From Sphagnum compactum (taxonomy: Eukaryota): a DNA stretch of 64,000 bases. The stretch covers positions 33,346,213 to 33,410,212 of the forward strand of contig OZ234493.1 of assembly GCA_965153455.1 (NCBI GenBank), given 5' to 3'. Positions 2,873 through 38,439 of this stretch are shown here, piece by piece; within the stretch, counting starts at the first letter, position 1, and each line of letters begins with the position of its first letter. Below the pieces are notes generated by a model, which saw only the letters and a list, made by a program, of their open reading frames with translations, did not search any database and had not been told where the DNA came from. The position numbers and the translations under genes are program-made.

Positions 2873-2987
2873 ACTCCTTAACCAACCCAACTTGGTTTTC
2901 GTTATTGACCTCCCAAAATAAGTAGGTTAGGTTTGTAGGCTAAGGACCCAAAATAGGGTCATCCTGGGAATTGGGGACCAGCATGCT

Positions 2988-3052
2988 CTAAACCCTAAAC
3001 CCTAAACCCTAAACCTTAACTAAACCTAACTCTAACCCTAAACCCTAAACCC
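2988..3052. repeat. Interstitial plant telomere-type repeats (CCCTAAA)n, degenerate
   Basis: ctaaaccctaaaccctaaaccctaaacct...aaccctaaaccctaaaccc read directly. Confidence 0.8.
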
Positions 3053-4849
3053 AAAAACCTAACTCTTTTTTTTTTTTTTAAATCAAATAACCACCCAACT
3101 CTTGTCAAGACATGATGTAATTAGTTTGGTTTTTCAGTTTTTTTTTTTTTTTTTTTTTATAAATGTATACATAGAATTGTGCATAGAGTTGGTCTCTTTG
3201 AGTGTTTTTCTAGTATTGGCAAGTTTTTTGAATTCGAAATGAATGTCGAACTTTGGGAGTTTATGTTCAAGTTCTTGTGACCAAATCCAACACCCTATAA
3301 GGTGGAACCAACACAAGGATTGAACCATGGAACTAGCCTATTGCTAGAACTAGAATTTTAAAAATAAACTTTTAAAAACATGTTCAAGTTCTTAAGGTAG
3401 GCACATTGAATTTTTTTTAATTAATTCACGAGTAAAATGACCTATATAGGTAGGTGACTAGTTTTAATTTGTTGAAAAACTTGGTACCTTCCAACCCCTT
3501 TGTTTTAGAAAATTGGTGCAAATTTTCCTCTTTAGCTAACGAGGTCCAACAACATTAATAGGAGTTTACAACTTCATTCCGTCATTAATAGGGTTGGAGG
3601 AAGGCAATCAAACCATGTTCACAACATCCATTCATGTCATTAGGATGATGTGTGTTACAACAAGCAAGGGGATTATGATGTCATGCCATTGTTTTCAAAA
3701 CCCTAATTGTCATCTCTATTGATGGCTTGTCAAGCTCCCTTCTAAAACCATTTTGCATTCAAGTTGAAACCTATGTTGTCAACCTTTGAATCCTATAGTG
3801 CAAAGTTTTTGCCATATTGTACTTGAGATCGTCATATTATGCTTTACCGTTGATTCAATACAGCCAATATATTTGGTGGAGGGGATTTATCATCCTTTTG
3901 CAACTCAAAAATTGGAATGCCCGTTCACTTGAAAGTGAAACATTTAAGGATCTTTTAATTGCATTTGTTTGGCTCCCACAAACCTTTCATTGTGGATTTG
4001 GGCATATTAATGTGAGTTGCCATTTCAACTTTGAAGATATGGATAAAAGGAGATTATTTGGTATGGCATATGCAATTTTCATGACAATGGCACTCACAAA
4101 ACTCACGGCATGTGCATCTTTTTCCATTGATTTTTGGGGGCTCTAAATTTTCTATAATAATCTAGAAGTTTCAATTATGATTTGCAAGCTTCCCAAACTT
4201 GATTCCCATTTTTTCTCAAGTTAGATCAAAGCTTTTGAAAGCCACCATTCTTTTTTACATTTTCCTTGTGGTCTTGTCGATCAAAAGTTGTCTCTTCAAG
4301 TTGGCATTTGAAAAAGTTGTTTTGTCAAGTTTGTGTGTCTTGTCATTGTGTTTCACAAAGTTCATAGCTAGGAGACATTGAGTTTTCCTATTTGTGTTGT
4401 TGACCATGGTGAATAGAAGTTTTTGTTCTTTTTAAATTTATACCATTCGCAAAAACTTATGAAGTTTGCCATTTCATCATTAATCTTTCATCAACTTGTT
4501 TAGGAACTTGAAGCTCACCATGCTTTTGGTCTTTTAACCTGATTCCACCATGTTTCCAAAGTCCTACATTTCTTTTAATATTATCAAGTCAACTCATAGA
4601 GGAGTGCAGCCTCCTCCTCATTTTGTAATTTGTTTTCTTGAAACCAAAAATGCACAACACAATCTATAAACCTTTAATTCCATGTTCAATGTGCCTAAAG
4701 TCTTTCTCGAAACACCTCATCTAAGTTCAAATTGCATGGAGTTTTTTATCTTAAACAAATTGAGTATGTCAAATTCACATTCTAACCCGCTTGTAATGTT
4801 GAGTTATTTTATTTGTTGTTTAAACCACCTTTGAAGAAATAGAAAAAGG

Positions 4850-5314
4850 ATGGGAAGAAGCCCAAAAAGTCTTATGACAACGCATAAAAATTTCAAACTA
4901 AATGGGTAACAAGGTTACCATGGGCTAAGGGTGTAATGTCAAATGGTTGGTTTATTTAGAATGTGAGTTGTAAGGGACTTACACTTTGATCAATTTACAA
5001 GTGAGATATTTTAATTAAACACCAAGGTTGTAAAATTGCAATCCAAGATTTACTAAAGTGTGGGGTGAAGAAGGTTGGAGAGTACATATAAAAGATTGTG
5101 CGCACTTGAAAAACATGAAGTTGTATGCTTAAAAGGTCCTAAGTCAATTTTGGTCCAAATGACACAACTTGTAGGTGAGAGGAATCAAAAAGTTGTTCAA
5201 ATGAAAGCCTTGTTTCATGTTCTTACATAGTTGGCCTATGCTAAAGTATGAGTCTTTATACATGTTGTTTGTTATCTAAGGCCCACCCCAAACAATTTTG
5301 TCATGCATTGGTCA
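4850..5314 (+). mobile_element. hAT (ZNF862-like) transposase relic, N-terminal part
   Basis: Interrupted frame ...LIKHQGCKIA..KDCAHLKNMKLYA..KVVQMKALFHVL..PMLKYESLYMLF..NNFVMHWS resembles ZNF862-type hAT transposases; contains stops and frameshifts. Confidence 0.65.
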
Positions 5315-5900
5315 TGAAGATTATTATCACTTCATAACATTTGGTAATTACTTAATAGTGGCATAAGCAATGGTTGACATTATAAAACATTTTATTGATG
5401 TTTTTGTTTGATTGAACAAAAAAGTGTTAATGACTTTAGAATCTTGAAAAAAATTACACTATATAGCAAATTTCAACATCAAAATTTGTTCATCTTTCAA
5501 AGTGAATCCCAAAATGGTATCACACCATGCCTCTTTGGAGATAAACCTTACCCATTTTGGAGTGGGTGATGACAACCCATAAACAAAGTGTTGGTTGTAG
5601 TGTGGTGGAGTGCTTGTACAATAGATGTCATAGGAAAAGTAGATTGGTTATAAATAATGCCAATGAGGTATTGAGCAACAAATTTTGAACATTCTTACAC
5701 TAAACTAATCTCCATGTGAAATTTGTATTGAATGTTTTCATTTGTTTTTACCTACTCCACAATGTGATACTTAATAGAGGAAATTTAGACATTGTGAAGT
5801 TGATACATGTGCTAGAAATACAAACTTATAAAGAGTTACAAAATCAACAAGCAAGTCAACATGTGGATGTTTTTGTACAAGAACACATTCAACCAATGCA
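5315..5900 (+). mobile_element. PIF/Harbinger DDE transposase relic, C-terminal part
   Basis: EDYYH..YLIVA*AMVD..FIDVFV..SVNDFRIL, LFGDKPYP and CFYLLHNVIL are decayed DDE_Tnp_4 motifs (DYY, GSxND, GDxGY, LHN). Confidence 0.7.
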
Positions 5901-6932
5901 CATTGGCAACAAAGGGAAAAAGTAGTTTGGAATGGTTTAAAAAATAATTTTGAAAACCTTCTTAGGGATTCAGGGATTTTAAAAATTGAAGGTTCAAACT
6001 TCATTTTACACCTCAAATTTCATCACAAATGCATGTCTTTAATATTTGTGTTAAATGCTTCTAAATGATTAAGTTTTACTAAAGGTGCATTAACAATCTT
6101 ACCCCATCATTTCTTCAATTATCTCTTGCAAATGCCATCACTAATACAAAATGTGGGTGTAGTCCCCGCTCACTAGACCAATGAATCCACTGCATCCCCA
6201 TTAAGTCCCATTCGCTAGGACCAATGAATTCATTCAAAATCCAGTGAAATCACTTGGTGTACATGGACACCATTTGTTGTAGTGCATGCCCATGAATAAT
6301 GTCAATGCTACAATAGCCTTGACCATGTTATTATTGGTCTTGTTGATGACACAATATTTTATTTGAAAATATTTTAGTTATTTTTTGACATCTTCTTGAA
6401 ACTTGTCCATGCATTCTTCAATTGTGAAAATGGTCATGTGAATTTGTATCAATTGTTGTTACAAGATATTCAAATTTTAAAAAAGAAATTTCAACCAAAT
6501 TCTTGTGAACAACATTTATGAAACACACTTATGTTATCTAAACCTTTTAAAATTTATGTTGAATCTTTTGATGTTGATTGATGAATACCAATAATGCTTG
6601 TTGGAAATGGTGTACAAGGAACTATTATAATAAATGATCTACCATGAGTTGTAACATGTGGTGTAACATGTGATGTACTAGTAGCTACTACAATAGGTTG
6701 TGCTCCATTTTGAATTAAACAATGGGGGAAGAGCCAATCCAAGTCATCTTCTGCCAATTGAATCTTTTCATGGTATGTTGCATTTTTAAAATACCAAATG
6801 AACCATGATTTTATTTTTTTTCGTTTTATTATGAAGGTCCATTTTTGATCAATTGAAGTTTCAACTTTTTTGTTTTGCATGCATGTCATACATTGTGTGA
6901 CATTCTTCAAGTTTGTGTGTAGAATACATCGC

Positions 6933-7410
6933 ATGTTGCAACCCTAATCTTGGGTTCATGACCAAATCTGAGGCCATGTACAAAAAAAATGAAACAAGAA
7001 GAAATTAAGGTAAGAAATGCACATAAACAAATTGTGGGAGTAAAAAGGAAACTTTGAATTTTTTGGGATGAATTCCCACTTTGGGTGCTGGAAGGTTTCA
7101 AAATGTTTTGAATTTTTGGGACAAAAGTTCATGGGAGTAAACTTTGTCAAAATTCAAAATGGTAATTTAATTAAAAAACATTAAAACTAAAAAATAAGGG
7201 TCAAATAATCTTCAATAGAAGCATGCAACATGGTGTTCAAAAGATTTCATCAAGAAATATGATTGTATAATTAGAAGCTTTTCAATAAAAGTTTTTATGA
7301 AAAAGTTATGAACCTATAAAGTTACAAGATTCATAACTTGAAAATCTCAATTGGGATTGCCACTTGGTAATCCTAGGCATTTGAACCATTTCAATATAGT
7401 AATGATATAT
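6933..7410 (+). repeat. Probable decayed LTR-like dispersed repeat
   Basis: Begins TGTTGCAACCCTAATCTTGGG, an LTR-like TG start. No partner LTR or TSD is seen; the call rests on resemblance only. Confidence 0.35.
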
Positions 7411-8739
7411 AAGCTTCAATCCATGGAACAATGGATTGATCATGCTTGTGCTTGAATGCAAACTAAAATTCAAGAAGACCATGAACATAAAATATAATGT
7501 GCATGTATCAAAATCAATTTAATGTTGTGTATGTTTCAATTCATGGAATAAGGGATTGTTAATGTTTCTACTCAAATGCAAACTACAATTCAAGAACATA
7601 TAAGTACTTGAAGGTGTTTTTTGGGTGTTGTCCATGATTTCTTTTCCACCAAATTCTTGCATTTCTTTGCCATTTTTTCATTTTTTTCATTTTTGCAATG
7701 TACAGTGGAGTTACACACACTAAAAAGTTTATATTGCTTTTGGGATAAAAAAACATAGGTTTTCGATCATTATTAATGGAGATTTCCTCTTTGACGAATA
7801 TTCTATACCAAATGACAAATTAACACATAAAATAATCTTTAGATTTTTTTTTATAGTTCACAAAATTTTCCTATAACATTTATATATGGATGTTTCAACA
7901 AAGCTCCAAATAATGTATTAGCAATTGAGTTCAACATGAAAGAACTAGAAACATAATTGGACAACATTGGGATTGGAATAACTATAATTCTTGATTCACA
8001 TCAAGAATTATAAGAAAAAGAAAAATTTCATGTTCAATAATTCAATTGGCCTCAACAGTTATGAGGTGCACTTGAATGATTGAAAGATCATCACAAACTT
8101 CTAATATCATAAAATTTCAATAGAGTTCATGCAAAAATCGTAAAACAATATGTCTGTGCAAAATTCATCCATTTCAAAGTGTAAAAATGACATGAATGTT
8201 TTAAAATATATATATAAAGGATGTGTCTTTTCTACTTATGATGTCTTGATGTGAAATACGTATGATTTACATTTTAATTAAATTTGTGCAGTTATCATGA
8301 TATAATTTTGCATAAAATTATGTAATTTTTGTGTATTAGACATGAAGATTCATGTATGTCATTTATAAAAAAATTCTCATTTTTTTGAATATTTAAGATA
8401 TTGAATATTCACAAATATCCTTCATATTAACCCAAGATAGCACGAAATTCATGTGATTTGTGCAAATCTATGAAAATCAATTTTTGCATGAAATCTATAT
8501 GAGTTTATGAAGCTTGGTAAGTTTATGATGATTATTATGTGGGTGGTGGGTTTTATTTTGTAAGTTTGACCAAAAATAATGATTTACATCAATAACTTCA
8601 AGTCTTTTTTTAAGGCCATTGATAATCCATAATTGTAAGAGTGGTATGCAACAATGTGTGATGAACATCATTTTCTATTCAAAGACCAAGCCTTGGTTTT
8701 GATTGATTTGCTTACACATTGCAAGATCAAAACAACATT

Positions 8740-9030
8740 TGTAGGAAAACTAACCAAGTACAAAGTTTAGCTTCTTGCCCAGGGTTTCACTCAAACCTAC
8801 AATGTAACTGATTACAACCAAAGTTTTAACTAGTTGTAAAATTTGAATCTATTTAAATAATTCTATTTATTTGTGCATAACAAGACATGAATATTGTGCA
8901 TTTTGACATCCACATTACATTCCTACATGGTGACTTAGATCATGAAATTTACATGTTATAGTTCAAAGGTTTCACATCCTTGGGTGAAAAATCAAAGGTC
9001 TATTGACTTTTGAAGAGTTTGTACATGGGA
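8740..9030 (+). mobile_element. Ty1/copia reverse transcriptase relic
   Basis: KYKV*LLAQGFTQTY..DY..VVKFESI..QDMNIVHFDIHITFLHGDLDHEIYM..LLKSLY matches copia RVT_2 motifs (ARLVAxGFxQ, xDVxTAFLxGxL, LxKSLYG). Confidence 0.8.
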
Positions 9031-28600: not shown

Positions 28601-28622
28601 AAACCCTAAACCCTAAACCTAA
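28601..28622 (+). promoter_or_regulatory. Telo-box repeats (AAACCCTA) at the MIF promoter; more copies in intron 1
   Basis: aaaccctaaaccctaaacct about 290 bp upstream of the ATG. Confidence 0.5.
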
Positions 28623-28902
28623 CTCCATTGCAGCAAATCTACGAGGACCTAGGGTTTCCGACGGAGCTTCGTCGTTGTTGTTTTTTGCTGGAGCTGAAGC
28701 GGGGTGCAGGGTTTTGTGTGAAGGCATTTTTTCCTTTACGAAATTGCGGAGTCATGGCATTCTTCCGTGCTTGACAGACATTCTTGTGTTCCAGGCAGAT
28801 AGACTTCCGTACGTCAAGGGAAGAAGGGAAGAAGCAATTGTGAGGTGCAAGGAGGAGGAGGAGCACCACCACCACCACCACCACCACTACCAACAGGATT
28901 CA

Positions 28903-30246
28903 ATGCCGACTTTCAATGTGCAGACCAACGTGCCCCTTGACGACTGTGTTTTAGTATCTGATATTCTCAAACAGACCAGCAAAGCAGTTGCCAACATCAT
29001 CGGCAAGCCTGAATCTGTACGTAACTGTTCTTATGCGGTTTTTGAGAAAAGTTTTGAATGTCATTTCTACACCAAAACCCTAAAAAATTCTTCGCTGCAG
29101 ACAGATAATGTGTGTACTACCATGTGTTTACCCTAAACCCTAAACCATGTGTGTTCAAGTTCTGTTAGTCCAGGAAGTTTTGTTTGTCCTGACAGTGTGA
29201 AATTTTAGGGTCTAGGGTTTAGGTTACACACATTGTTTTCTCACCTTATTTGCTCAACCAATTGCAATGCTCATAATGTCAAGGCAATGTTTGTGGAATG
29301 TAGTATGTAATGATATCACTCAGAGGAGGAGTGCCAATGTTGTTTGGGGGGAGCGAAGACCCAACAGCATATGGGGAGCTCATCTCCATTGGTGGACTAG
29401 GGCCAGAGATAAATGAGCAATTGAGTGCAGCCCTTGCAGAGATTCTGCAGACGAATCTGTCGGTGCCTCCAGCAAGATTTTACATCAAGTTTTATGACGT
29501 CAAGGTAAGGTCTTATGTTTACGACTGGGCTAATTTTTTTGGAGTGGAATTTGTGCTAGGAATTTTGCATTCAGAATGGTGATTTATGCTTGTGCATCTT
29601 GTATGGATTGTTGTTGTGGGCAGGGTCATTCATGTACTCAGGATAAATTGTGCATGCATGTACTTCACCACTAAGGCTTTTCAGGCCCTCTGAAATACTG
29701 CTGTTCTTGAGAGAAGTCATCCATCAAACTGTACTCATGGCAAGTAAGTCATAGTTTAGAATCAGGTTGGCAAGTTGTCCAGTTTTCTGTCCTATTTGCA
29801 CACTCTCGACAGTCACAGTGTGCTTCAATTGTGTAGAATTTGGAGGAGGCAGTCTCTCGCAAATCAATAGCTTGTTTTGTCACACATCATGATCACTGGT
29901 GGAGTGCTGAATGTAAATAGCATAGTACTTATGTAGCTCACTCACCTATATGTGCTGTTTTGTACAGAATCCAGTAACTTCTGAATATTTTAGGTCTAAA
30001 GACAGCAAATGCAACAATAGTCTCAATAAGGACTGCTATAGTGCCTCAGAGCCTGTTGGGCTTCATATGCAATTCATGATCTATTCATAGCAGCTTATGA
30101 TGAACATCATGATAATGAAGGCTAGCACCTAGGAAACTCATAATACAAGCACTAGTTTTCTTGCCATATCACTGCAAAGAACCTGATTGGTTTTTGTGTG
30201 GGACGCGCAGATGACTGACTTTGGCTGGAATGGTGCAACATTCTAG
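28903..30246 (+). CDS. MIF: Macrophage migration inhibitory factor / tautomerase-like (MDL) protein, 116 aa; exons 28903-29016, 29304-29504, 30211-30246
   Basis: M-P start (catalytic Pro1), IGKPES|YVMI, FGGSEDPTAYGELISIGG, RFYIKFYDVK|MTDFGWNGATF*, with canonical phase-0 introns. Confidence 0.95.
29624..29674 (+). other. Candidate alternative terminal exon of MIF encoding GHSCTQDKLCMHVLHH*
   Basis: TTGTTGTGGGCAG acceptor followed by an in-phase 16-codon ORF ending in TAA. Confidence 0.55.
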
Positions 30247-31689
30247 TCTGGTAATTGCTCTTTGATCAGCATTGTAAACAGTTGAAGTAACTCATACATG
30301 ATTATTCACGCTTCAAAGGGAGTGCCAGCTGCTACTCTAAGGTGAAGCCAATCCATGTGACTTTGCCAATATTGTGATCCATACTGCAATTGGCAATGGT
30401 TAGGCTGTAAAGCCCACAAATGTTGTTCTCCCTAAACCGTGGATGTGATCAACCCTGTTGATAACTTGTTGATGGTAACTCTGTTGGGAGCTGACGAAGT
30501 CAAATGGGTAGTAGTCATGGCAGCTTGCAATTGCTATTCATGATGAAGGTGATGGTCTGACACTTTGGTAGTAACTCTCACAAGGTTATGACTGCATTCA
30601 TTGTCGTGTTATCATCAAAGTGTAGTGGATTTCCCTTCGGAATCTTGAAGAGATTGTAGCATGAAGTTTCAAAAGCTTGTTTCTCCAGAGTTCCTCTTGG
30701 CCTATGGACTGGATTTGTTTGGTGTTTGATTCAAGACGAATATGGAATGCTTGCAATGAAGGTCACAATTGAAGTTGGAATGAAAATGTGATGATAGCCT
30801 TGAATGCTCTCCCAGTTCAAAAAAATATCGAATGGAGAAAATCCCGTGCTACAAAAGCACAAACAGAACCATGTGCATAAGTGCTCTATTTCACTTTTGG
30901 CCATGCATAGTGGTCCTGATTAGTGGAACCAGTAGACCACCACTGATCTCACCGAAGAAAAACTCACAAATCATTTATGTGTGGGCTGAGGTTGTGAAGT
31001 GTAATGTAAAGTGAAAATAGACTTTTTTGAGCTATCGATATATCATAATGGAGCCAAAAAGGGTAACTAATTGTTTTATGTAAATTTTGATTTTTGACTT
31101 GATGTTCTATGTAACTTCTTTTACTACTATTTTAGGGTTTTCCCTTTCTTTTTCTTCATCACTTTGCTTAGATTTATTCTTTCTCCACTTTCTTCATTTT
31201 CTTCATTTTAGCAAGTAGGATCACAATGGATCATAAAAGAGAAAAAGTATGAAAAAACCAAACATGGCTTTTTTGGCTAATTGGCAAATGAAATTTGTGC
31301 CCTTGTTTTATGTTGAAAATATTTTCTAAAAATGAGAAAAAAAATTATGTACAAAAATTTGACAAATCTTGACTTTTTTGGACCATGGGTTAACAAATTT
31401 TGTTCCCACCTTCAGAAGAAAATCATCAAAAAATTGAGAAAATTTTTATGTAAGAAAATCCAACCAATCATGGCCCATGTGCTAATGAACTTCATGTTCA
31501 CCTTCAAAAAAACATGATTTAAAAAATTTAAGAAAATATTGTGACAATTTTTTTGTAGACATGGGCTTTTTGATTTCATGCTTTAACAAATGTTAAGCCC
31601 ACCTTTTTTTTTAAAATTATAAAAAGATTGAAACTCAACTATTTAAAATTTGACCAATCCTGATTTTTGGAGCTCATGGTCTAACATTC

Positions 31690-35584: not shown

Positions 35585-38439
35585 GTTCCTAAACTCCAAA
35601 TATTTCAAAAGAAAAAACCTAAAGCAAGCTATTCTCTATTTTTTGTTTCCAGGCAAGGCAAAAGAAACACAGAAATAAAAACTTGTGAAAGCTTGCTGGC
35701 TATGGAGTCTGTCTCTTCTTCTTCTTCTTGTGCTCCTCCTCCTTCTCCCCCGTACTCAAGCTCAGAACAGGTTCTCCCTGGACCTGTTCAGGCGTCCACG
35801 CCGCTGCTTCGTCAAGTGGTCAAGTGGTCCTACCGGTGCCAGTTCCGGGCTGCACGCGCTGGTTCCGTCAACTGGTCCTGGGTCCTACCAGGTCCGGTTA
35901 CGGGCTGCTCGCCGTTCCTTCAAGTGGTAATGGGCAACCCTTTTTTTCCCCCTGGCTATATATAGCCCAAAATATATATATATTACAAAAATTAAAATTG
36001 CTACTAAAATCATTTTTTGAAAAAAATAAATAATTAGCCATAATTCGAAAACAATTCAAGAAATTATTTGCTAAAATCATACATGGATGGATGTCTATTA
36101 TCTGAGCGTCAATAATAAATTTTTTAAACATAAAAAGCAACAACAATACAAAAATAAAATAAAATTATAAATTAATTTCATTACAATTTTTGTTATTAAA
36201 TCTTCATAAAAGTTTTTATTGGAGTTTCAAAAATAACATCAAATGAAATAAATATGTTTATATCTCAAAAACGAATTTTATATTAAATTTTTAATTTATT
36301 TTAAAATTGACGATCTTTTATTTTAATCAATTCTTGCATAATAATCTTTTCAAATCAATTTTTTTAAGAATCTCATTTAATAGTAAGGTTTTAAAGGAAT
36401 TGAAGCTAATTATTTGTCTTGTTTATCAAACAAACTTCAAAAATAGGGGTGTGGATGGATCTCCTCTTTAATGGTTAATATTTGACCCCCCAAAATGTTA
36501 AATTTGTACTCTTCCTCAAACACGGTATAAATATTGGCAACAACCTATATATATATATATATATAGGCCTCATCCTACCAAAGAAAAGTTTGAGATTTTT
36601 AAACATATAATTTCAAAAATAAAGGTAGATATTTCCAAAATTTTAATGATTTTTTGTTACTTGAATTTCAATATATGCATAAGAATCTTAGATTTTAAGG
36701 AAATAAAATCTTCCCCAAAAGAATCTTCAGCTGAAAGTAGATTTTTTTGGCCTTATGAATTTTCGGTAGATGGAACCCAAGAATAATTAACAATGGGTTC
36801 CCGAGCGTAACTAACTAGTGTTCCCCACCGTTGATTCACATCACAGCAAGAGTGTTTCACAACGGAGATGATGTGAATCAATGGTGGCAAACACTACAAT
36901 TATGGGAATCAACGGTGTGGAATCCATGTGGATTCCTAGGTGGAATGGGCCTTGTAGGGCCCATTCCATATAATCCAAGAAGCTCATCTAAAGAGCAACC
37001 CTAAACCCTAAACCCTAAACCAAATACATAGGTGCACATGTCTATTAGGGTCATTTTTAAAGATTATGTATGTTGTTGACAATGGAATTTTGGGGGGGGG
37101 GAGTGAGTTCCATGTGAGGCACTAGTAGATGGATGGATGGGATACCTAGTATATGAACCCTATTACAAATGGGTATTCCGAGAAATGGATGGGCCCATCC
37201 ACAAATCTGGAAAGAGCTTGAAAGGTATTCCTTGCCCTACATAAAGAATTTTTCTTCAAATTTGAGGGACCTTGCACAAGTGGGAATATACAACCCTTTT
37301 ATTTCCTTTTCTCTTTGTTGGATCTTCTTCCACTTTTGTAAGGTTTGATAGAATTTGAGATGACATGCTTTCAAGTACAAAGACCAAATTTGAAAAAGTT
37401 CTTGACATGTTGGTGACATGCATTTGAAAGAGCAGTCTTGACCTTGACAAGCTCGTGGTTGAAGGAGAATCTCTCTTGAGTGATACCTGCAAATCTATCT
37501 TCGAAGCAAGGTAGTTTGTTTGTTTTGTTTTGTTTTGTTTTGTAGTTATGAGATCCACCCAACCCACGATGCTTCAGATTGAGTTCTTCATGTCTTTGGA
37601 GAGCTCTCAACAAGGAGGGGTGCATGGGCTTGGTTCCATGACTTTTGGACTTGCCATGCAAAAGTTCTTGAATATTGAATGATTTCGTTTCAACTCTTCT
37701 TCTTTTTCAAATAATAGGGCATTGTGCATGGTAAAGCCCTAGGGTGGGGGCATTCTCAAAATAAACGTGGATTCACACCTAGTGTTAGCAAAAGTGAAAG
37801 GAAAGTACCCTAACACTTTTATAGTCTTTTTCACTTTGGTCACATCCTTGAACTAAATCATTATCAACCATGATGGTAGCTAGCATCAAAGGGGCCATTC
37901 ACACATAATACAACACATTAGTAATCAAGGCTAAAACATATTAATAACCTATCATAGAAGTAATTCATGTTCATGTATGCTGGTTGGTGAAGATGAGAAG
38001 ACTCATAGGGTATGCTTTCGGATTGGCATTGCATCTTTTTTATCTTTTTCTTGCAATTTGTTCGTATTGGTTTCAACTTTTGTTTTCTCATCTTGCAATA
38101 ATTTGACATTGTGATTCAAACTTTAATTGTCTTTTAAACCTATTGGTTACATCTTTGGTTTTGGTTTTGTTTTGCCTTCTTTGCATGTGTTTTCTTTTTA
38201 CTATTTTGTTTGTTTTGCATTGTAGGTTTGCTATTTTTTAAAGTTTTAATTTGACTCAAATGAAGAGATTCATTGTGAAAAGAAGGCAAGAAAAAACCCC
38301 AACACATGGGGAGCACAACCAAGTGCTCAAGGAAAGACTCTATTAATGAAACATCTACAAAGCCCATCATGTCACCACTTAACAAACCTTCCAAACCTAA
38401 CTTTGATAATCCAATTCCTTCCCCAACATCTATCAAATT

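Follow-up and report, generated by a model that had tools for sequence, protein, structure and literature searches.

The stretch of DNA analysed here, called the window, comprises 64,000 nucleotides (nt) of Sphagnum compactum contig OZ234493.1 (assembly GCA_965153455.1, positions 33,346,213 to 33,410,212) and contains, on the plus strand at 28903-30246, a gene for a small MIF/D-dopachrome-tautomerase-like (MDL) protein with three coding exons. This gene harbors a cassette exon, probably an ancient one, located at 29624-29743 after the codons for ...FYDVK, through which a splice choice would switch between a tautomerase-type form and a form with a Cys/His-rich tail. Skipping of the exon yields the canonical protein of 116 residues ending in MTDFGWNGATF. 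Inclusion yields a protein of 121 residues, ...FYDVK-GHSCTQDKLCMHVLHH followed by a stop, in which the tail replaces the last 11 canonical residues. Both isoforms leave exon 2 from one shared donor (29504/29505, GTAAGG at 29505), from which either C-terminus is reached. All MDL coding-exon junctions are in phase 0 and all introns are GT..AG. The translated protein (MPTFN...) carries a Pro directly after the initiator Met, which is the catalytic Pro1 of tautomerases, and the canonical S. compactum protein shares the exact ...LQTNLSVPP... variant of the window; other proteins almost identical to that of the window are also filed under species of Sphagnum. The event is the Sphagnum member of a known but neglected splice variant; what is new is its age, the invariant Cys/His core and the apparent dominance of the tail form in one Sphagnum paralog.

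Four public sequencing runs were aligned to window positions 28700-30900. Run X24 consists of raw poly(A) RNA reads, of which about 12% of the run was read, while run X1 consists of Logan contigs. The junction between exons 1 and 2 (29016>29304) is spanned by five reads in X24 and one contig in X1. The junction into the cassette (29504>29624) is spanned by three reads with three different starts in X24 and by one contig in X1 at a depth of 6.95, and the junction out of it (29743>30211) by two reads in X24 and one contig in X1, again at a depth of 6.95. The skipping junction (29504>30211) has no reads in X24 and a contig depth of 5.81 in X1. The tail isoform and the canonical mRNA both exist. 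Because read depth in X24 drops to 0 on either side (bins 29514-29587 and 29810-30179) and lies between 1.1 and 5.4 across bins 29588-29809, the included segment is a discrete exon and not a retained intron; and because position 29743 is spliced on to 30211, it is a cassette exon and not a terminal one.

An independent, fully spliced mRNA is provided by a metatranscriptome contig (L003), which joins exons 1 and 2 to the cassette and continues along the last exon as far as window position 31161. The canonical last exon extends at least that far. Identity to the window is 114/114 in exon 1, 196/201 in exon 2 and 119/120 in the cassette (contig positions 570-689), and the open reading frame of this contig is the tail isoform of 121 residues. 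The sequence-only reading had proposed that an acceptor in intron 2 opens an in-phase exon, that the Cys/His tail can take the place of MTDFGWNGATF, and that junction reads from 29504 to 29624 should be sought. Its reading of GHSCTQDKLCMHVLHH and the stop was exact, the acceptor (GGGCAG directly 5′ of 29624 on inspection of the sequence) is used in RNA, the reads are there, and the exchange of tails is confirmed by the junctions and by the reading frame of the metatranscriptome contig.

With respect to the balance of the two isoforms, inclusion is at least as frequent as skipping in X24 (3 and 2 reads versus 0) and in X1 (depth 6.95 versus 5.81). The protein cluster of the window gene at 90% identity has 18 members, of which 15 are listed. 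Among these listed members, all 8 of the JGI proteins have the tail, and the canonical forms of 116 residues all come from genome annotation. Two further fragments of the window type (P0386, P0390), placed in the cluster of a paralog, also carry the tail. The tail form does not look like a minor isoform of this gene in the way its counterpart is in Arabidopsis, as the listed transcript-derived proteins, small in number, are 10 with the tail and 0 canonical. The picture is reversed for the paralog on chromosome 1, for which all 3 of the members without an NCBI record (JGI/IMG and/or Logan) are canonical, and whose tail form, of 120 residues, is known solely from a gene model annotated in S. magellanicum. 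In the window gene the tail form appears to be a major mRNA, and it seems to be the main product of this paralog. The Sphagnum paralogs seemingly differ in use of the exon (29624-29743 compared with loci L005-L009; proteins P0382-P0391), and the Diphasiastrum gene is annotated with the tail alone, which hints at a repeated division of labour following duplication. The canonical tail of the window gene itself varies among Sphagnum at usually steady positions (MTDFGWNGATF, TTDFGWNGATF and TTHFGWNGATI; L001, L002, P0243), and constraint on the canonical form of this paralog may be relaxed.

A profile of four C-terminal pieces was searched against a set of 5.8 billion proteins and gave 345 matches at E ≤0.1. 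Among the best 120 of these 345, tail-bearing proteins score at least 71 bits and canonical proteins at most 67 bits, leaving a clear gap. A loose Cys/His pattern was present in 52 of the 234 proteins fetched, and 48 of those 52 are protein clusters ending in ...AQC[LM]H[AS]xHQ plus 0-2 residues before the stop (typically ...AQCLHALHQx). Named members of the 48 clusters are all angiosperms (monocots, magnoliids, Sarcandra, Nelumbo, Papaver and many core eudicots), and are often labelled 'isoform X1'. The flowering-plant ...QCLHALHQ tail that the sequence-only reading had named is therefore real. The zygnematophyte alga Spirogloea muscicola has a protein model that ends in GLEASAAESICLHAIHQ and a stop (...ICLHAIHQ). 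A HMMER scan of 1.84 billion representatives (2110 matches, best 150 listed) added the lycophyte Diphasiastrum complanatum, in which both annotated models of the gene end in the tail, ...FDHQK-VQSQAAVCLHALHQ and a stop (...VCLHALHQ). The suggestion that the switch is conserved across land plants holds, and the tail reaches beyond them, being found in Sphagnum, a lycophyte, the 48 angiosperm-type clusters and a zygnematophyte alga. The tails of the alga and the lycophyte are known only from protein models, and the exon has been located in genomic DNA in Sphagnum and at 28 angiosperm loci.

Some further proteins were considered. The tail of Hevea isoform X1 (ELSEKILCHKHSMLHN...) was included in the profile (A1) as a possible relative, and its homology is still doubtful. 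Gene models continuing as ...HQ-VPSLAGMD (P0163, P0164, P0184) seem to result from reading the canonical last exon in the wrong frame and were not used as evidence. A very divergent MDL-like protein of 118 residues from a Logan contig (P0349) begins MLYLH..., with no Pro after the Met, and has ...SVSCLHAMHQ at its C-terminus; should this protein be real, the tail can outlast the tautomerase N-terminus.

In an alignment of 43 tail isoforms the residues Cys115, His117 and His120 (Cys10, His12 and His15 of the tail) are invariant and form a core of Cys-x-His-x-x-His. M1 and P2 are likewise invariant across the 43. At the 28 angiosperm genomic loci, which come from plant-associated metagenomes, the exon begins 82-124 nt after exon 2 behind an acceptor TAG or AAG. 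The Sphagnum exon lies 119 nt from exon 2 in the window and 97-120 nt from it in the Sphagnum loci. The window exon shares the general arrangement, being in phase 0 after a ...F-[YH]-D-x-K codon about 80-125 nt from exon 2, and it ends in Cys-[LM]-His-x-x-His-[QH] plus 0-2 residues and a stop. A conserved Cys/His coding block in orthologous introns, which had been named as a check on the original proposal, is present in Sphagnum and angiosperm loci alike. In the MDL proteins of a zygnematophyte alga, a lycophyte, a moss and many angiosperms, a tail of this kind follows the equivalent codon.

The angiosperm exon occurs in 11 distinct versions of 17 codons. Among them, codons 8-16 (AQCLHALHQ) show 6 synonymous versus 2 amino-acid variants, codons 1-7 and 17 vary freely, and the position of the stop is fixed. 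Differences between moss and angiosperm core codons are partly synonymous. Across the window and the 78 loci, which amount to 727,238 codon positions in six frames, the motif C-[LM]-H-[AVS]-x-H-[QH]-x(0-2)-stop was matched 38 times, and every one of these matches sits on the sense strand a short way past MDL exon 2. A chance origin of the motif is excluded. Among the 28 exon-bearing loci of angiosperm MDL2-type genes (L020-L070), exon 2 has a donor of the rare GC class (GCAAG) in 22 and GT in six grass-like loci; in Sphagnum it is GT.

Conservation within Sphagnum was followed through the 78 loci of a metagenome scan, by way of which the paralogs were also reached. Four loci (L001-L004) are orthologs with 97-99% identity in exon 2, and five (L005-L009) represent a paralog with 93% identity and the canonical tail RTDLGWNGATF; the cassette exon is present in both groups. 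Coordinates of the gene parts, together with a comparison of the window and the paralog locus L005, are given in Table 1. Substitution in the tail coding part is significantly lower than in intron 2a (Fisher p = 9e-5). Since the non-coding block of 33 nt at the end of the cassette is frozen and the tail codons have no synonymous change, part of the constraint acts on RNA and not on protein. From its conservation, the block at 29711-29743 is likely a splicing enhancer or a donor-context element, and the intronic block at 29574-29592 may be a branch point or a splicing-regulatory element; for both, a role in RNA structure or protein binding is a further candidate. The intron around them differs by about 30% between the paralogs. 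As a side note, runs X18 and X19 behave like DNA from relatives about 3% divergent, with the introns covered; the differences listed for X19 comprise 4 in exon 2 and, in intron 2a, another 4 and an indel, with none falling within 29624-29740.

Table 1. Parts of the window MDL gene and their divergence from the paralog locus L005
Feature	Position	Strand	Description and evidence	Substitutions versus L005	Indel columns versus L005
MDL exon 1, coding part	28903..29016	+	38 codons, MPTFN...GKPES, then GT donor; translation		
MDL exon 2	29304..29504	+	67 codons, YVMIS...FYDVK; splice junctions	18/201	0
Intron 2a	29505..29623	+	119 nt, GT..AG; spliced out in the inclusion isoform only; junction 29504>29624	28/100	19
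Intronic block upstream of acceptor	29574..29592	+	19 nt; identical in the window, two orthologous and three paralogous loci; alignment		
Cassette exon	29624..29743	+	120 nt; junctions 29504>29624 and 29743>30211; spliced contig L003		
Cassette coding part	29624..29674	+	GHSCTQDKLCMHVLHH then TAA stop at 29672-29674; translation	1 in the 48 nt of the tail (Leu>Val)	0
Stop codon of cassette	29672..29674		stop retained	TAA versus TGA	0
Segment after the stop	29675..29710		free to vary	10/29	7
Last 33 nt of cassette	29711..29743		non-coding	0/33	0
Donor of cassette	29744..29749		GTAAGT	unchanged	0
Intron 2b	29744..30210	+	467 nt, GT..AG; junction 29743>30211 (2 reads X24, one contig X1)	152/445	21
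Canonical last exon, coding part	30211..30246	+	MTDFGWNGATF then stop; turns into 3′ untranslated region in the inclusion isoform		

The tail isoform has been noted before in several places. GenBank already contains the Sphagnum form, in annotated models from S. fallax and S. magellanicum. Second gene models of AtMDL1 and AtMDL2, along with 'differing C-termini' in other species, were noted and set aside by Panstruga et al. (2015, PMC4407349). Splice variants of Arabidopsis MDL genes were confirmed by reverse transcription PCR, with MDL1.1 and MDL2.1 predominating (Gruner et al. 2021, PMC8122116). The same work reports that MDL2.2 and MDL2.3 (At5g01650) encode one protein, and that mCherry-MDL2.2 was cloned, was nucleo-cytoplasmic and co-precipitated with MDL2 in Arabidopsis (PMC8122116). 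Plant MDL work has dealt almost wholly with the canonical variants, and in these two papers the others were set aside as rare or as possible mis-annotations (PMC4407349, PMC8122116). With annotated Sphagnum models and an Arabidopsis counterpart already cloned and studied for its localisation, the isoform is less new than the sequence-only reading implied. That reading holds for the tail and for its conservation; it fails for the type of exon.

An Arabidopsis protein with the tail DHQSQEYAQCLHALHQHY (P0175) is found under two Arabidopsis accessions. The canonical product of the corresponding locus type (L034) computes to 12110.8 Da with a pI of 6.17, which equals the AtMDL2 values in Table 1 of PMC4407349. 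Because of this match and the two accessions for one protein, the Arabidopsis tail form is most likely MDL2.2. Like the window gene, the Arabidopsis gene has an extra exon in the intron after its ...KFYDTK codons (L034), and the two tails share the Cys-x-His-x-x-His core. However, MDL2.2 is a minor form whereas the tail form of the window gene looks like a major form, and the N-terminal halves of the tails differ. The angiosperm exon is also short, with an inferred donor 0-5 nt past the stop, whereas the Sphagnum exon has 120 nt including 69 nt that are non-coding, and the exon 2 donor that is mostly GC in angiosperms is GT in Sphagnum.

No literature on the tail motif or its deep conservation was found in a search that left subscription journals and bioRxiv supplements outside its range. 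An RNA Biology 2025 paper on structured plant RNAs (PMC12218528) has no mention of MIF, tautomerase or either gene id. The MDL event resembles the deeply conserved splicing events of SR-protein genes, in which an alternative exon or intron is kept from moss to angiosperms with nucleotide-level conservation nearby (PMC1636356). It differs from them in that the conserved feature includes a peptide motif ending a small enzyme- or cytokine-like protein. Conserved splicing events in SR-protein genes mostly yield unproductive transcripts of splicing regulators.

The consequences for the protein were considered by means of the Pfam MIF profile (PF01187, gathering cut-off 22 bits). Against this profile of 114 positions, P0242, the canonical protein of Sphagnum, reaches 96.3 bits over positions 1-113, and the tail isoform (P0239) 84.8 bits over positions 1-104. 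Pfam searches with tail isoforms reported MIF alone, with no match to a curated metal-binding or zinc-finger family. In an AlphaFold2 monomer model of the tail isoform the per-residue confidence (pLDDT) of the tail is below 50. Because the canonical tail is also below 50 in the control model of the canonical isoform, monomer models are uninformative on either tail and were rejected as evidence.

Human MIF offers a partial analogy. Deletion of its residues 105-114 abolished tautomerase activity and kept the trimer and CD74 binding, and the C-terminal hairpin stabilises the trimer (PMC3448610). The plant tail isoform resembles the human deletions of 105-114 or 110-114, in which the beta6-beta7 hairpin after strand beta5 is lost, in that it lacks MIF profile positions 105-114 (PMC3448610). 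However, the human deletions were engineered and nothing was added, whereas the plant isoform substitutes a conserved tail of 14-18 residues. The consequences seen in human MIF, loss of tautomerase activity with the trimer kept, would carry over to the plant isoform by analogy.

Under the mechanism we propose, the splice choice would switch between two proteins, a tautomerase-type MDL with the usual C-terminal hairpin and the tail form. By comparison with human MIF, the tail form would keep the MIF core and the ability to oligomerise, would lose the hairpin, which gives the active-site pocket its shape and lends stability to the trimer, and would have a tautomerase pocket that is altered or dead. 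Because the hairpin of human MIF is not needed for the trimer, the tail form should still assemble, which fits the co-precipitation of the Arabidopsis variant with MDL2. In return it would gain a Cys/His module with a potential for metal binding or redox sensing. Plant MDLs are described as having 'either one or no cysteine' (PMC4407349), and so an invariant Cys with two invariant His residues makes a plausible metal or redox site. The appearance of AT5G01650/MDL2 in a table of clustered genes in a genome-wide association study of zinc allocation in bean was also considered, and is far too indirect to support metal binding.

Several points weigh against an ancient protein-changing switch. The read counts are tiny, with 5 junction reads at the cassette in the approximately 12% of X24 that was read, and contig depth is a poor gauge of abundance. 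The tail isoform is known here from RNA and sequence. For Physcomitrium, of which three RefSeq accessions share the canonical protein, no tail isoform was seen, and none was seen for ferns, gymnosperms or liverworts among the matches listed; genomes of these groups were not searched, and absence is not shown. Within Sphagnum, two more distant paralogs (GS[ND]FGWNGKTF type, L010-L018) have no recognisable copy of the exon. A possible relic of the exon in four of these loci (L013, L015, L017, L018) was considered and rejected, being only an H-rich frame (...SDSHHHD and a stop) with no phase-0 acceptor and no demonstrated homology; the local alignment scores of 19-22 lie inside the shuffle range (maxima 26-30). 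Substitution in the tail coding part (1/48) is not significantly different from that in exon 2 (18/201, p = 0.14), and the tail codons, which lack any synonymous change between the paralogs, are no more frozen than the non-coding block of 33 nt. In Arabidopsis the canonical MDL2.1 transcript predominates (PMC8122116), and the identification of the tail protein with MDL2.2 comes from mass, pI and the two accessions for one protein. For metal or redox binding, three invariant residues per chain (Cys, His, His) are only suggestive.

A last point against it leads to the main alternative. Nonsense-mediated decay is usually triggered when a stop precedes the last exon junction by over 50-55 nt. In the window the cassette stop lies 69 nt upstream of the exon junction and in the paralog 62 nt, so decay of the inclusion transcript is predicted under the usual rule. 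The cassette could then be mainly a 'poison' exon, in which a premature stop leads to decay and tunes MDL output while the tail peptide is functionless. We regard this as unlikely, although the constraint at the level of RNA (the non-coding block of 33 nt and the intronic block of 19 nt), the zero synonymous change in tail codons between paralogs and the minor status of the Arabidopsis variant (PMC8122116) would all accord with it. Against it, the peptide as well as the RNA is conserved from an alga to angiosperms, with synonymous variation in its core codons and a fixed stop position. In the angiosperm loci, alignment points to conserved GT donor candidates (TAG/GTCATG, CAT/GTAAAT) solely at 0-5 nt past the stop, which is too near for junction-dependent decay. 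Moreover, steady-state abundance of the inclusion transcript is not low in Sphagnum, as it is abundant in the runs and in metatranscriptome assemblies, and the lycophyte gene is annotated with the tail only. The cassette could have regulatory and protein-coding roles both at once.

The sequence-only reading had taken the exon as an alternative last exon, the transcript being polyadenylated soon after 29674. A stop in frame at 29672-29674 leaves room for this, but no result supports it and it is very improbable. Reads and contigs splice from 29743 to 30211, the metatranscriptome contig continues through the canonical last exon to 31161, and no cluster of read ends was reported across the aligned stretch, so that the expected poly(A) site was not confirmed and a cassette of 120 nt takes the place of the terminal exon. 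That the tail merely reflects an open frame arisen by chance, noise in splicing or a fault of annotation, and has no selected role, can be dismissed almost outright, since the low junction counts and the low pLDDT of the tail that might speak for it are set against a motif placed at one site in 38 of 38 cases, whose conservation extends over two paralogs in Sphagnum, 28 loci in angiosperms, a lycophyte and an alga, and the same low confidence in the canonical control deprives the pLDDT of meaning.

Returning to a splice switch with a functional tail, a broader proposal may be made, which we hold to be possible though doubtful. The MDL switch would have arisen in streptophytes before land plants, and the tail would be a metal- or redox-sensing site, possibly formed across the subunits of homo- or hetero-trimers, that would turn a tautomerase-type protein almost devoid of cysteine into a regulated sensor or a dominant modifier. 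In some lineages one duplicate would mainly make the tail form, the candidates being the Sphagnum window gene on chromosome 8 and the Diphasiastrum gene on chromosome 16. That an alga, a moss, a lycophyte and flowering plants all keep three Cys/His residues invariant, and that the variant is a major mRNA of one Sphagnum gene, argues for a working protein. To our knowledge, few protein-changing splice events are common to mosses and angiosperms. The reading of mdl2 mutant phenotypes (flowering time, bacterial immunity) and of cross-kingdom MIF-receptor experiments would be affected, because the experiments used single isoforms.

Several repeats lie in and around the window gene. A (CAC)n repeat of 9.7 copies is located at 28864-28892 in the 5′ untranslated region, in frame with the start codon and with no upstream ATG. 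In metatranscriptome contigs it has been miscalled as a poly-His/poly-Glu N-terminal extension (e.g. P0003), and its length varies among relatives. Telomere-type repeats (CCCTAAA)n have 10 matches in the window versus 0 expected, at 2986-3056, 28604-28617, 29131-29144, 29204-29217 (minus strand) and 36999-37019. Intron 1 contains an inverted pair of them, and one stands some 300 nt before the start codon of the MDL gene. They resemble the 'telo-box', a promoter element of plant housekeeping genes. Finally, contig depths in the DNA-like runs add up to 4,000-9,000 at a short element (30476-30623) within the MDL 3′ untranslated region, which indicates a very high-copy repeat, probably a miniature transposon. 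Loose ends are numerous at 30530-30567 within it, and one of the more distant MDL paralogs of Sphagnum (L013, L015) has an insertion of similar sequence in its intron 2.

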